A DNA stretch of 64,000 nucleotides, taken from positions 1 through 64,000 of IMG/VR virus record IMGVR_UViG_3300045988_120820. The stretch is one strand, 5' to 3'. The stretch comes from a virus. Of the stretch, positions 10,417 through 63,470 are shown in pieces. The position numbers were made by a program, and so were the translations under genes. The notes under the pieces are model-generated. The model saw nothing but the letters and a program-made list of their open reading frames with translations, was not told the DNA's origin and made no database searches. Every line of letters starts with the position of its first letter. Position 1 is the first letter of the stretch.

Positions 10417-10467
10417 TATAGGTAATTTTTATGATAATAATGTTAATACAGTAATATAAGAAAGGAG
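10417..10467 (+). promoter_or_regulatory. phage-specific promoter-like element, copy a
   Basis: TATAGGTAATTTT 10417-10429, 11-nt spacer, TGTTAATAC 10441-10449, AATATAAG 10453-10460, SD. Confidence 0.5.
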
Positions 10468-10554
10468 TTGGTGTAAATTGAATGTGGATAAAAATAATTA
10501 ATAAAGTTAATGAAATATCAATAAAAATAATAAATAAAAAGGAGAATGATGAAT

Positions 10555-11292
10555 ATGTTAGAATTAAAAGAATGTAAAATGAATCACGTGCAATTGTGTG
10601 CTAAAATAAATGAATTAAGAAAAATGGAAGGGAGTAAGAAAGAATTAGCTAAAAGTGATTTACTTAAAAAGATAAGAAAAGAAGTAGAGACTATGAAAAC
10701 TCTTGGTATTTTTAACGAAGGAAATTTTTCCTTGGTTGAGTATAAAGATAAAAAAGGGGAAATGAGACCAACTTATATTATGAATAAAGATGGTATATTA
10801 CAAATATGTGCTTCTGAAAGCGTTTATGTTAGAGCTAAAATGATTGAATATATAAATACGTTAGAAGAGCAAGTTTCTGAAATGGATAGATTGATATTGA
10901 AATCATTAGACCCAAATTTAACTAAAGAAGAAAGAATTGAAATTGAAAGACGAAGAGCCGAACTGTCAAAAGAAAGAGACGAGAAGGCAAATTGGTTTGA
11001 CGATTTTCTTAATTCAAATGGTTGCTATTCGAGTACTCAAGTAGCTAAATTATTTAAATTGTCATCAGCACAAAAACTAAATAAGATATTAAATGAAAAT
11101 AAAATAATATACAAAAAGGGAACGAACTGGTTGCCTTATAGTGACGTAGATAAATCATGGTATAAACTTATTGTAGGAAGTAATAATGAACATAATTATT
11201 CACAATTAAAATTTTCACCTAAAGGTGTGTATGAAATTAGTAAATTATTAGAAATAGAATTTGAAGAAGAGGATTTAAAGAAATTAGCATAA
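10555..11292 (+). CDS. phage regulatory protein, Rha-like N-domain plus KilAC/ANT-like C-domain
   Basis: Start moved to ATG 10555; family-level pattern recognition of both domains. Confidence 0.6.
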   Translation: MLELKECKMNHVQLCAKINELRKMEGSKKELAKSDLLKKIRKEVETMKTLGIFNEGNFSLVEYKDKKGEMRPTYIMNKDGILQICASESVYVRAKMIEYINTLEEQVSEMDRLILKSLDPNLTKEERIEIERRRAELSKERDEKANWFDDFLNSNGCYSSTQVAKLFKLSSAQKLNKILNENKIIYKKGTNWLPYSDVDKSWYKLIVGSNNEHNYSQLKFSPKGVYEISKLLEIEFEEEDLKKLA

Positions 11293-11312
11293 TCTAAAAA
11301 TAATTAATATTA

Positions 11313-11340
11313 AGACTAGATAATTCTAGTCTATTTTTTT
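11313..11340 (+). terminator. intrinsic terminator
   Basis: AGACTAGA-TAAT-TCTAGTCT perfect 8-bp stem followed by ATTTTTTT. Confidence 0.75.
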
Positions 11341-11351
11341 ACTCATTCTTA

Positions 11352-61548: not shown

Positions 61549-62026
61549 TGGAATAGTGTATGATTCAGTTGTTGATGGAGAAGGTTTAAGAAATACAATA
61601 TTTGTATCGGGCTGTTTTCATTTTTGTAAAAACTGCCATAATCCACAAACATGGGACTTTAATTATGGTTATGAGTTTACAGAAGATTTACAAGATGAAT
61701 TTATAAAAAAATGCAAAGAAAATATTTTATTAAATGGAATAACTATAAGTGGGGGAGACCCTATTTATAGTTATCGAGAATTAATTCCTTTTTTAAAGAA
61801 GTATAAAAAGAAAAATCCCACACACGATATTTGGTTATATACTGGATTCAAATATGAGGGTATAAAAAACAATGAAATATTAAAATTAATAGATGTTTTA
61901 GTTGACGGAGAATATATAGAAGAATTAAAGGATTCAACATTGTCTTTTAGAGGTAGTAGTAATCAAAGAATTATAGACGTGCAAAAAAGTTTAAAAGAAA
62001 ATAAAGTAATATTATTGAATATATAA
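61538..62026 (+). CDS. nrdG: NrdG activating enzyme (radical SAM)
   Basis: MNISGIVYDSVVDGEGLR..GCFHFCKNCHN; 11-nt overlap with nrdD. Confidence 0.85.
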   Translation: MNISGIVYDSVVDGEGLRNTIFVSGCFHFCKNCHNPQTWDFNYGYEFTEDLQDEFIKKCKENILLNGITISGGDPIYSYRELIPFLKKYKKKNPTHDIWLYTGFKYEGIKNNEILKLIDVLVDGEYIEELKDSTLSFRGSSNQRIIDVQKSLKENKVILLNI

Positions 62027-62045
62027 ATTAAAAATAATTAATAAA

Positions 62046-62105
62046 CATAGGTAATTTTTATATCAGTTTTGTTAATACACTAATATAAGAAAAGGAGGTG
62101 ATAAT
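62046..62105 (+). promoter_or_regulatory. phage-specific promoter-like element, copy m (5' part, interrupted by the TnpB element)
   Basis: CATAGGTAATTTT 62046-62058, N11, TGTTAATAC 62070-62078, AATATAAG 62082-62089, AGGAGGTGATAAT to 62105. Confidence 0.5.
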
Positions 62106-63408
62106 ATTGTAAGATGAAATCATTAAAAATAAAATTATATCCTACAAAACAACAAGAAATATTATTCTACAAACATATTAATTGTCAAAGATATATTTAT
62201 AATTGGGCTTTAGGTATTAACAATGAATTATATAAAGAAAATAAAATGAAATATTCTAGTAATGAATTGTGTAAAATGCTTACTCAATATAAAAAAGATA
62301 ATACTTGGTTAAATGAAGTATCTAGTGCAACGTTAAAAGAATCAATTAGAAATCTAGATAAAGCTTATACTAATTTTTATAAAGGTAGAGCCAATTTACC
62401 TAAATTTAAGAGTAAAAGAAAGTCTAAATTAAGCTTTTATAGTAGATATGATAAAATTAAATTTTACCAAAATAATACTGTTAATTTAGAAAAAATAGGT
62501 AGGGTAAAATATAAATCTAGCTATAATATAGATTTGACTCAAATAATTAAATTTAGTAATCCTCATGTATCATATAATGGTAGATGTTGGATATTAACTG
62601 TAGGTATAAGTGTAGATAGTGAAATGCATAAATTAACAAATGAAGTAATAGGAATAGATTTAGGCATAAAAGAATTAGCAATATGTAGTAATGGAATGAT
62701 ATTTAAAAATATAAACAAAGATTTAACTATTAAGAAATTAGAAAAACGACTTAAAAGATTGCAAAGAAAAGTAAGTAAAAAATATGAATTAAATAAAGAA
62801 GGGAGGAGTTATCAAAAATCTAATAATATAATTAAACTTGAAAATAAAATAAATAGATTATATCGAAAATTACATAATATAAGATTAAATTATATACATC
62901 AAACAACTTCTACAATAGTGAAAACCAAACCTTGTATGATAGTTATGGAAGATTTATGTATTAAAAATATGATGAAAAATAAATCAATTGCTAAACAAGT
63001 TCAAAAGATAGGGTTATATGAATTTATTAGACAGATGAAGTATAAATGCGAATGGAATGGTATCAGATTTGAACAAGTAGATAGATATTTCCCATCAAGC
63101 AAAATATGTAGTAATTGTTTTAATATAAAGAAAGATTTAAAATTATCTGATAGAACATATTATTGTGAAAAATGTGGTTTAACTATTGATAGAGATTTTA
63201 ATGCAAGTATTAATCTTATGAATTATGGAAAGTCATTATTATAAGAATTTCTATAACATGTAGTGTTTCGTTAAACACGAATTTACGCCTTTGGACTATT
63301 AATAACTATAGTAGGTATTTTTCTGAAATAGAATAGAATGAAAAAGGAATGAAGATTTATTTAAGTTTAATTTATAGATTTTTATAGATTTTCGATAACG
63401 GTGATAAT
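62106..63408 (+). mobile_element. TnpB-only IS200/IS605-family (IS1341-like) insertion; boundaries inferred
   Basis: Interrupts a repeat element whose two halves (62046-62105 and 63409-63470) rebuild the intact copy at 49264-49380; GGTGATAAT at 62097-62105 and 63400-63408. Confidence 0.55.
62114..63244 (+). CDS. tnpB: TnpB (OrfB) RNA-guided nuclease
   Basis: KLYPTKQQ N-terminus, RuvC-like IGIDLG, VMEDL, zinc finger CSNC..CEKCG, DRDFNASINL. Confidence 0.85.
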   Translation: MKSLKIKLYPTKQQEILFYKHINCQRYIYNWALGINNELYKENKMKYSSNELCKMLTQYKKDNTWLNEVSSATLKESIRNLDKAYTNFYKGRANLPKFKSKRKSKLSFYSRYDKIKFYQNNTVNLEKIGRVKYKSSYNIDLTQIIKFSNPHVSYNGRCWILTVGISVDSEMHKLTNEVIGIDLGIKELAICSNGMIFKNINKDLTIKKLEKRLKRLQRKVSKKYELNKEGRSYQKSNNIIKLENKINRLYRKLHNIRLNYIHQTTSTIVKTKPCMIVMEDLCIKNMMKNKSIAKQVQKIGLYEFIRQMKYKCEWNGIRFEQVDRYFPSSKICSNCFNIKKDLKLSDRTYYCEKCGLTIDRDFNASINLMNYGKSLL

Positions 63409-63470
63409 AAAAATGTAAAATACATTCTAAATAAAATATTAATAAAAATAATAAATTTTAAGGAGATGAT
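63400..63470 (+). promoter_or_regulatory. orphan 3' half of a phage-specific element with ATG-TAA minimal ORF
   Basis: GGTGATAATAAAAATGTAAAATA..AAATATTAATAAAAATAA, close to 49311-49370; ATG-TAA 63413-63418. Confidence 0.5.

Follow-up and report, generated by a model that had tools for sequence, protein, structure and literature searches.

A repeated intergenic cassette in an uncultured gut phage family: a probable phage-specific promoter class with two ECF-type sigma factors as candidate readers

Introduction

What reads a noncoding element that recurs twelve times, in one orientation and one geometry, in the genome of an uncultured phage, and which genes might it turn on? The element lies in DNA from IMG/VR virus record IMGVR_UViG_3300045988_120820, positions 1 to 64,000 (the window, meaning these full 64,000 nt), which has a G+C content of 25.8% and in which transcription is almost wholly rightward. 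An earlier reading of this DNA, referred to here as the original prediction, took the repeat as a candidate promoter class for phage sigma factors encoded in the same window. Its anatomy, conservation, and placement suggest that each copy very probably consists of a phage-specific type of promoter with a standard 5′ leader attached; that one or both of two small sigma factors of the extracytoplasmic function (ECF) type recognize it is the reading that we favor, with appreciably less assurance.

The phage is uncultured, approximately 135 kb in size, and from the gut, and its host is an anaerobic low-GC Firmicute. Megablast of the window against 50,697 isolated phage records gave no meaningful match and hence no annotated close relative; the nearest cultured relatives, recognized by distant protein matches to DnaB and to a large sigma factor, are the 131-kb phiCD211-like phages of Clostridioides difficile. 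A literature search on the motif strings returned nothing relevant.

Results

A tripartite repeat with invariant spacing

The window was searched for CATAGGTAATTTT-N11-TGTTAATAC with up to three mismatches, with 100 dinucleotide-preserving shuffles as the null. Twelve full copies were found, each with at most two mismatches, all on the + strand and all between open reading frames (ORFs), and none was found in the 100 shuffles. This bears out the predicted number, strand, and intergenic placement of the copies and also eleven of their twelve positions; the copy placed at 58750 in fact starts at 58751. When aligned, the copies consist of a block CATAGGTAATTTTt, 11 unconserved nucleotides, TGTTAATAY, two free bases, and TAATATAAG, giving the cassette consensus CATAGGTAATTTT-N11-TGTTAATAY-nn-TAATATAAG. 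Box 1, CATAGGTAATTTTT, holds GGTAAT and then a T-tract; box 2 is TGTTAATAY; and box 3, TAATATAA(G), is likewise conserved and begins two bases past box 2. The gap between boxes 1 and 2 is 11 nt in all twelve copies, exactly as predicted, and corresponds to 14 nt from ATAGGTAAT to TGTTAATA. Within the window there are 12 instances of this spacing, and spacings of 5, 10, 12, 15, 23, and 29 nt occur once each; the sole case of box 1 or box 2 without its partner is the box 1 at 19367.

Farther 3′, a Shine-Dalgarno (SD) sequence, AAGGAGGTGAT, is present at a variable distance, starting at motif positions 41 to 48 and sometimes later (positions are numbered from box 1, with GGTAAT at 5 to 10 and TAATAY at 28 to 33). 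The original prediction had counted a 3′ string, AATATAAGGAGGTGAT, as part of a protein recognition site, but the complete string at fixed spacing is present in only three copies (up to three mismatches), and this part of the repeat appears instead to be a start region and 5′ leader with an SD. The broader claim, that the repeat is a bipartite site for protein recognition and not a structured RNA, held up: the spacer is free, the RNAalifold consensus fold has an energy of −0.11 kcal/mol, with six weak pairs of which one shows a single compensatory change, and there was no Rfam match at the copies. A structured RNA element was therefore rejected for want of a fold, real covariation, and an Rfam family.

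Conservation across a phage family

An exact-pattern scan of IMG/VR matched at least 111 stretches from approximately 15 viral contigs of 113 to 140 kb, with many copies each, and about 60% of the sequence of these related genomes was compared. The search across relatives that the original prediction had proposed was productive, with at least 147 distinct copies among the matches listed. The 14-nt box distance was seen 203 times in relatives, and any other spacing at most nine times, which is the background level. As a guard against ascertainment bias in the conservation of boxes 2 and 3, instances in relatives were anchored on box 1 only; box 2 lay at the identical spacing in 138 of 145 of them. 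In this set, TGTTAATA was 91 to 98% conserved at each position and TAATATAA 75 to 91%, while the 10 to 11 spacer positions reached 39 to 66%; at motif position 33 either C or T is found. Lineages with a DnaB only 43 to 46% identical to that of the window have the motif in unchanged form; it is a family trait under strong selection.

Contig maps place 11 to 14 copies on one arm of 60 to 70 kb and 3 or 4 clustered copies on the opposite arm in the opposite orientation, and on both arms of about 14 related genomes the copies are always intergenic and co-oriented with the genes. In 12 kb of the structural region of one relative, the sole copy precedes an HNH endonuclease inside an apparent group I intron (locus L044:4176-5337).

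Outside the family, a set of 185,579 bacterial and archaeal species genomes (one each) contained only scattered single matches, apart from a human-gut Firmicute metagenome-assembled genome in which two short contigs with the motif are fragments of this phage. This distribution indicates that the motif is phage-specific, and the regulon of a host alternative sigma factor was rejected as an explanation because the motif is not repeated in any of these species genomes. The nearest host consensus is that of sigma-H, RNAGGAWWW-N11-12-RNNGAAT, in which the −35 is similar and the spacing is 2 to 3 nt shorter than in the cassette. PhiCD211 has neither the motif nor the small sigma factors, despite a shared DnaB, large sigma factor, and genome layout.

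A minor variant in relatives, (A/T)AAAGGTGAYTTTT-N11-TGTTAATAT-A-TAAGTATAAAA, takes the place of the standard copy at some orthologous sites, one of them behind the polymerase gene (examples of the variant are L077:2774, L084:5212, and L033:7810); it is followed by the junction motif described below, in place of the SD and start-stop leader.

Promoter geometry and placement

Boxes 1 and 2 have the geometry of a promoter of the sigma-70 family, that is, GGTAAT, a 17-bp spacer, and TAATAY, with TG at −15/−14 relative to TAATAY and an A-rich tract upstream of box 1. The start of transcription would lie inside TAATATAAG, approximately 6 to 8 nt past box 2. In at least 44 of the 147 distinct copies, the SD at positions 41 to 48 is itself the SD of a long ORF, which puts the start of transcription 5′ of about position 41.

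The surroundings of the copies point the same way. Terminator-like hairpins end 10 to 90 nt upstream of the copies at 10417, 20815, and 54060, and two copies form tandem pairs with sigma-A consensus promoters (20815 with 20903, and 54060 with 53986). Mobile genes, namely homing endonucleases and TnpB, lie directly behind copies, each having or capturing a copy of its own, which fits an "on" signal. No copy occurs before 10417, in the region where sigma-A consensus promoters cluster, so that the predicted lack of copies in the first 10 kb stands; with at least 11 of 12 matches, the + strand of the window has 22 such promoters and the − strand 2, and the first 15 kb contain 13 of them. Every test made (geometry, placement, upstream terminators, downstream SD, absence of RNA structure, conservation, and absence from bacteria) favors a promoter function. 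The copies and their immediate surroundings are as follows.

10381 to 10407: terminator hairpin before copy 1
10417 to 10460, + strand: copy 1, boxes 1 to 3; SD at 10463, GTG-TAA at 10471, antirepressor gene at 10546
20758 to 20777: hairpin before copy 2
20815 to 20858, + strand: copy 2; SD-like AAGGTGGTGAT without a start codon behind it, gene at 20957
20903: sigma-A consensus promoter 3′ of copy 2
25583 to 25626, + strand: copy 3; start-stop ATGTAA at 25637, HNH homing endonuclease gene (25696 to 26928) behind it
31577 to 31620, + strand: copy 4; start-stop ATGTAG at 31632, gene at 31684
34020 to 34063, + strand: copy 5; SD at 34062, start-stop ATGTAG at 34075, AAA_24 ATPase gene at 34152
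39827 to 39870, + strand: copy 6; SD at 39873, short ORF, DnaB-like helicase gene at 39986, primase-like gene at 41568
45827 to 45870, + strand: copy 7; abuts a junction motif at 45811, and its SD at 45868 directly serves the N-terminal exon of the DNA polymerase gene at 45873
49264 to 49307, + strand: copy 8; SD at 49306, start-stop ATGTAA at 49320, gene at 49385
53944 to 53969: hairpin upstream of copy 9
53986: perfect sigma-A promoter upstream of copy 9
54060 to 54103, + strand: copy 9; before the intein-containing dcm methylase gene at 54132
57716 to 57759, + strand: copy 10; SD at 57761, ATGTAA at 57769, gene at 57776
58751 to 58794, + strand: copy 11; before the nrdD/nrdG (anaerobic ribonucleotide reductase) region, 59290 to 62026
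62046 to 62098, + strand: copy 12; putative promoter boxes and SD AGGAG, with the leader broken right after the SD by a TnpB element

The stop codon TAG of the polymerase gene lies inside CATAGG of copy 8, at 49266 to 49268, as originally described. The description of the copies as standing before replication and nucleotide operons is correct as far as it goes, but the class also precedes mobile genes and, in relatives, a sigma operon on the other arm, and it is not purely a middle replication class. An "SSB-like" label for one of the downstream genes was unconfirmed, since the gene at 20957 to 21451 has no Pfam or PHROG match. Other sigma-A consensus promoters are interspersed with the copies, at 20903, 25107, 30805, 38865, 52780, and 53986.

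Two small sigma factors as candidate readers

Upstream of all copies but the first lie two tandem genes whose products are candidate readers of the motif.

14402 to 14430, + strand: sigma-A-type promoter TTGACT-N17-TATAAT, directly upstream of sigma paralog 1
14466 to 15020, + strand: sigma paralog 1, 184 amino acids (aa), ECF-type
15098 to 15682, + strand: sigma paralog 2, 194 aa, ECF-type

The two proteins are paralogs with 42% identity. Paralogs 1 and 2 match Pfam PF04542 (Sigma70_r2) with 33.4 and 27.0 bits (cutoff, 24) and NCBIfam TIGR02937 (sigma70-ECF) with 53.9 and 44.3 bits (cutoff, 42.9), the latter aligned over model positions 9 to 161 and 25 to 159 of 165. Region 4 was matched by PF07638 at residues 132 to 187 of paralog 2 (23.8 bits; cutoff, 21.1), and a C-terminal helix-turn-helix is conserved across an alignment of eight homologs; regions 2 and 4 are the only ones matched by models. 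Paralog 2 also gave a weak match to a sigma-H structure in the PDB (E = 9e-4). Judged by these matches, both genes encode bona fide ECF-type sigma factors, in agreement with the original prediction of two ECF-like genes at 14466 to 15682 under a sigma-A-type promoter.

The sigma pair is present in 13 of 13 large family contigs, always within a motif-free gap of 10 to 12 kb, and TTGACT-N16/17-TATAAT precedes it in 7 of 12 relatives. In a search of 5.8 billion protein clusters, homologs of the small sigma factors were confined to this family; tblastn of paralog 2 against the 50,697 isolated phage records gave no match, and distant homologs, sought for co-variation of sigma and motif, all came from the same family. 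No anti-sigma gene is evident beside the pair.

We consider it probable, though well short of assured, that one or both of these factors recognize the cassette, because they appear to be genuine sigma factors, a sigma-A promoter precedes them, they lie in the motif-free gap, they are confined to the same family as the motif, and the −35 with its T-tract is ECF-like. The hallmarks of ECF-type promoters are a −35 followed by a T-tract, spacers of 14 to 17 bp, and close adherence to consensus (PMC5758882). In the cassette, T occupies positions 11 to 14, directly 3′ of the putative −35, with frequencies of 99, 98, 80, and 71%, and the distance of 14 nt from AAT to TGT is within the ECF-type range.

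Several observations weigh against such recognition. Where ECF-type promoters have an AAC core in the −35, the cassette has AAT, with T at position 10 in 97% of copies, and where they have a CGT core in the −10, it has TGTTAATA. Sigma factors of ECF size lack region 3, the part that reads TG, so the TG of box 2 fits host sigma-A better; the "extended −10" label given to this box was thus right about the position of the TG but suits host sigma-A better than sigma factors of this kind. In about 45% of copies, box 2 contains TGTTAATAT, a fair sigma-A extended −10. Copy 1, at 10417, lies upstream of the sigma genes. The conservation of box 3 exceeds the usual need of a start region, and another reader is possible. 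Finally, in these sequence comparisons the co-occurrence of sigma factors and motif is inseparable from common descent: the comparisons turned up no lineage having one of the two and not the other, and none with co-varying changes.

Under the strongest alternative, which we regard as unlikely, the copies would be promoters that host sigma-A holoenzyme recognizes by their extended −10, TGnTAATAY, either unaided or together with a phage adaptor, and the small sigma factors would serve other promoters; box 1 would then be irrelevant to sigma or would be the site of a phage activator replacing the −35, a form of sigma appropriation in the style of T4 MotA and AsiA. T4 middle promoters, which use host sigma with two adaptor proteins (MotA and AsiA), combine a good −10 with a foreign box in the place of the −35, which is the same logic. 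Besides the absence of region 3 from ECF-size sigma factors, such a reading would account for the TG at exactly −15/−14, the canonical 17 bp between hexamers, the T with which the −10 ends in about 45% of copies, and the A-rich tract upstream of box 1, which resembles an UP element. It would account poorly for GGTAAT, which is approximately 95 to 100% conserved yet matches TTGACA at one of six positions, in keeping with the original prediction that this box is unlike TTGACA, and for positions −13, −10, −9, and −8, which are hardly read by sigma-A and are 93 to 98% conserved. TAATAY matches TATAAT at three to four of six positions, and the key T at −7 occurs in approximately 42 to 48% of copies, with C in about half. 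Since many near-perfect sigma-A promoters exist elsewhere in the same genome, the distinct boxes of the cassette appear to reflect not drift but a second specificity that is maintained. A limited look among annotated neighbors showed no MotA- or AsiA-like protein.

A quite different possibility, which we consider improbable, is that a phage repressor or other DNA-binding regulator binds the copies as asymmetric sites, spread through the genome in one orientation, to block or modulate transcription. The stoperators of mycobacteriophage L5 are likewise asymmetric, intergenic, and co-oriented with transcription, and the temperate or plasmid-like look of this phage (an antirepressor, partition genes, and a replication initiator region with iteron-like repeats), together with a box 3 conserved beyond the need of a start region, would suit such sites. 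Against this stand the complete promoter layout of the element (−35-like and −10-like boxes 17 bp apart, with an SD at a fixed short distance behind them), the endonuclease and TnpB genes directly behind copies, which suit an "on" signal and not a block, the three copies that come after terminators, and the size of the site, which at 44 nt and three parts is far larger than known stoperators.

Still less probable are promoters for a phage-encoded RNA polymerase, single-subunit or noncanonical multisubunit, encoded outside the window. The near-invariant 20-nt block through the putative start site (TGTTAATAY-nn-TAATATAAG) does resemble the contiguous promoters of T7-like polymerases, and the approximately 60% coverage of the related genomes likewise counts for this reading and against ours. 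The obligatory −35 box with a free 11-nt spacer is, however, an architecture of sigma type and not of T7 type, no RNA polymerase was found among ORFs of at least 600 aa in the window or the covered loci of relatives, and three encoded proteins of the sigma family imply use of the host core enzyme.

A proposed early-to-middle switch

Under recognition by the small sigma factors, a host sigma-A promoter would drive the two ECF-type sigma genes, and one or both products would direct host core RNA polymerase to the cassette copies, with GGTAAT and the T-tract of box 1 serving as the −35 and TGTTAATAY of box 2, 17 bp on, as the −10 region. This would constitute an early-to-middle switch, in which genes for replication, nucleotide metabolism, and DNA modification are turned on. 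In relatives, the switch would also turn on an operon on the other arm with a third, larger sigma factor heading the structural genes. There, three or four close-set copies precede an operon whose genes include those for a DNA methyltransferase and a sigma factor of 395 aa (for example L033:7246-12699, on contig IMGVR_UViG_3300045988_134731, outside the window); the latter matches phrog_5767 (E = 3e-78) and is a homolog of the phiCD211 sigma factor that heads the structural genes. Judged by this gene order, the cascade is probably three-tiered, with the motif also switching on the late regulator. No convincing candidate for a distinct late-promoter motif emerged from a search of approximately 14 kb in the structural region of one relative. 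Just upstream of the other-arm copies, at L033 positions of approximately 7040 to 7150, are iteron-like repeats, CCCTTAAAAACACATAT, next to a divergent gene for a replication initiator-like protein.

The 5′ leader

The SD of the cassette is kept even where no gene comes next. In 7 to 8 of the 12 window copies, what comes after it is a start-stop or no start codon at all, and the gene proper is preceded by a separate SD, 28 to 145 nt farther on. The start-stops comprise ATG-TAA or ATG-TAG in copies 3, 4, 5, 8, and 10, GTG-TAA in copy 1, and the displaced ATG-TAA at 63414. Of 14 cassette SDs, 9 have a start-stop behind them, compared with 11 of 258 elsewhere (Fisher P = 1e-8, a figure inflated by paralogy), and orthologous copies keep their start-stops even though their spacers have diverged.

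The RNA would begin a few bases before this near-perfect SD, which would serve the first gene directly or precede a start-stop mini-ORF or no ORF at all. Where it serves no gene, by analogy with known leaders of Gram-positive bacteria it is probably a stabilizer: a ribosome held at the extreme 5′ end would protect the RNA from 5′-exonuclease in the manner of STAB-SD. The 5′ polypurine stabilizer of phage SP82 is a similar mRNA element. In STAB-SD (cry3A) and the hbs leader, a ribosome on an SD at the 5′ end is reported to block RNase J1 (PMC5737220, PMC3997798). Shared with these three systems is an SD that is fully complementary to the 3′ end of 16S rRNA, would lie at the 5′ end of the transcript, and is unneeded for translating a gene; in contrast to them, the SD here is often followed by a start-stop pair (ATG-TAA or ATG-TAG) and is part of a repeated promoter cassette.

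Recombination and mobile elements at the copies

Two incomplete elements had been listed in addition to the twelve copies, a degenerate copy at 19367 and an orphan 3′ half at 63400.

19367 to 19380, + strand: box 1 only; box 1 exact, with no box 2 and no box 3
62114 to 63349, + strand: insertion splitting copy 12, consisting of an IS607-type TnpB gene (62114 to 63244) and a RAGATH-18 scaffold (63288 to 63349)
63400 to 63425, + strand: displaced 3′ part of copy 12, GGTGATAATAAAAATGTAAAATAC, consisting of spacer and start-stop (ATG-TAA at 63414)

Both are real, but neither is a separate element. The fragment at 63400 is the far side of the copy at 62046, and the two form one cassette that is uninterrupted in four relatives, reading ...AAGAAAAGGAG|GTGATAATAAAAATGTAAAATAC...; the empty sites there read AGGAG|GTGATAATAAAAATGTAAAA (L014:7101, L041:3639, L046:929, and L089, − strand). 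The insertion, directly after the AGGAG of copy 12, consists of TnpB (Pfam OrfB_IS605 and Cas12f1-like_TNB) and a RAGATH-18 RNA (Rfam RF03064, 50.1 bits; gathering score, 44.9). RAGATH-18-derived RNAs guide IS607-type TnpBs, with 5′-AGGAG as target-adjacent motif (TAM) and with the guide after a 64-nt flank past the RAGATH-18 motif (PMC11061315). A flank of this length puts the guide at approximately 63400 to 63414, and this position and the AGGAG insertion site together suggest that TnpB uses the SD of the cassette as TAM and the leader as target, the predicted guide target being the leader sequence GTGATAATAAAAATGTAAAA. In relatives (L016 and L090), a second TnpB, 34% identical, lies directly behind another copy.

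At 19367, where box 1 is exact, relatives (L134:15805, L088:4454, and L020) have a full copy and are homologous to the window through box 1, with homology ending in the spacer (19367 to 19420); the gene 3′ of it, for a partition protein at 19568, differs. We read this as a recombination breakpoint at which a promoter copy served as the joint. Such a breakpoint, mobile genes behind copies, and the same copy with different genes behind it in different relatives could suggest a mere recombination or mobility "linker" that marks module boundaries and has no dedicated transcription role, but this is the least likely of all the explanations, since recombination needs identity alone and not a free spacer, fixed orientation, and promoter-like geometry, and recombination at copies is better taken as a consequence of repeated promoters, as in the promoter-stem-loop cassettes of T4-type phages.

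One HNH homing endonuclease with its own motif copy is free-standing in the window (25583 to 26928), and another lies in a probable group I intron in a relative. We speculate, at no great odds, that the repeat is a portable expression module, in which an orthogonal ECF-type promoter for the sigma pair and a 5′ stabilizer acting by "ribosome parking" on a perfect SD and start-stop would also be a preferred recombination joint and a landing pad for selfish elements, such as TnpB, with the SD as its TAM and the leader and start-stop as its guide target, and homing endonucleases that travel with their own copy.

Other features of the window

A junction motif, AAAATAATTAATAA, occurs at 61 sites from 386 to 62031 with at most one mismatch, all on the + strand, compared with 3.6 expected. 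It is found at nearly every gene boundary, early region included (examples are 5306, 15672, and 45811), and in many cases it includes or adjoins the stop codon of the preceding gene, shortly ahead of the following SD. The predicted junction motifs adjoining cassette copies, at 45811 and 62031, are present. The motif is infrequent in the structural region of one relative, and phiCD211 lacks it; it might be a standard intercistronic linker made of a stop and an AU-rich stretch, enhance translation, mark a processing site, or act as a recombination linker.

Two exon-like ORFs, at 45873 to 46763 and 48456 to 49268, make up the split DNA polymerase gene and match PHROG 1252 positions 49 to 357 and 408 to 653; the approximately 1.7 kb between them has two sub-threshold group I intron matches (46844 to 46950 and 47336 to 47414) and an HNH endonuclease (47411 to 48274). 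The C-5 cytosine methyltransferase (54132 to 56246) contains an intein with LAGLIDADG (Pfam Intein_splicing, Hint, and LAGLIDADG_3, residues of approximately 76 to 436). ScpB-like and partition protein genes lie within 17207 to 20497 and, with the antirepressor, suggest a plasmid-like prophage lifestyle like that of phiCD211. A DndB-like gene, associated with DNA sulfur modification, is at 52821 to 53939.

Discussion

The cassette appears to be a very clean new promoter class in an uncultured phage family, which extends known strategies of phage gene timing and overturns no concepts. The closest functional parallels are the Bacillus phage SPO1, coliphage phiEco32, and Salmonella phage 7-11. 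For SPO1 (gp28, gp33/34), a phage sigma cascade with its own promoter classes is described (PMC13401047), and the promoters of 7-11 were inferred, as here, from over-represented intergenic motifs (PMC4331800). In these phages, early genes use host sigma-A/70 promoters and a small divergent phage sigma factor (gp36 in phiEco32) redirects host core RNA polymerase to a conserved phage-only motif before middle or late genes, as we propose here; moreover, the motifs of phiEco32 and 7-11 (TAATGTATA and TGATGTTATA) resemble box 2 (ATGTTAATA). Similarity of the small sigma factors to phiEco32 gp36 was tested for and not found at the sequence level. Whereas the promoters of those three phages are single −10-like boxes, the cassette combines a −35 box, which is obligatory, with a T-tract and a conserved putative start region, and this family differs further in its two tandem sigma paralogs with a third, large sigma factor, its anaerobic low-GC Firmicute host, and its uncultured state.

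The ECF (group 4) sigma factors of Bacillus subtilis offer the closest parallel in architecture. Promoters of sigma-W, -X, -M, and -V read tGAAACnTTTt, 14 to 17 bp, and CGTA or CGTC (PMC5758882). Here too there is a two-domain sigma factor of approximately 190 aa, a −35-like box ending in AAY and followed by a conserved T-tract, near-consensus sequences, and a spacer within the range of 14 to 17 bp. The differences are AAT in place of AAC, TGT/TAATA in place of CGT, the absence of an evident adjacent anti-sigma gene, and a factor that is phage-borne and would be constitutively early, not released by stress.

Two features recall T4-type phages. Like T4 middle promoters, the cassette pairs a good −10 that is often of the extended kind with a conserved foreign box standing where the −35 would be, and copies stand in tandem with putative early promoters (20815/20903 and 53986/54060); unlike in T4, sigma family genes are present. 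The promoter-early stem-loops (PeSL) of T4-type phages are mobile promoter cassettes at module boundaries that act as recombination joints, and the copies described here are likewise repeated promoter-like units at module boundaries, accompanied by mobile or variable genes. There is, however, no stem-loop here, and both the promoter class and the phage lineage are different.

If confirmed, these results would provide a complete regulatory map, read from sequence, of an uncultured gut Firmicute phage family of approximately 135 kb, running from host sigma-A promoters through two small sigma factors acting on the cassette to a third sigma factor for the structural genes. The strict consensus and the family-only sigma factors would then also offer an orthogonal sigma-promoter pair for synthetic biology in low-GC Gram-positive bacteria. 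The leader, with its SD and start-stop at the putative 5′ end, is a natural test case for ribosome-mediated protection of mRNA in phages, and the TnpB insertion suggests an RNA-guided transposon nuclease that uses a ribosome-binding site as its TAM inside a phage promoter cassette.

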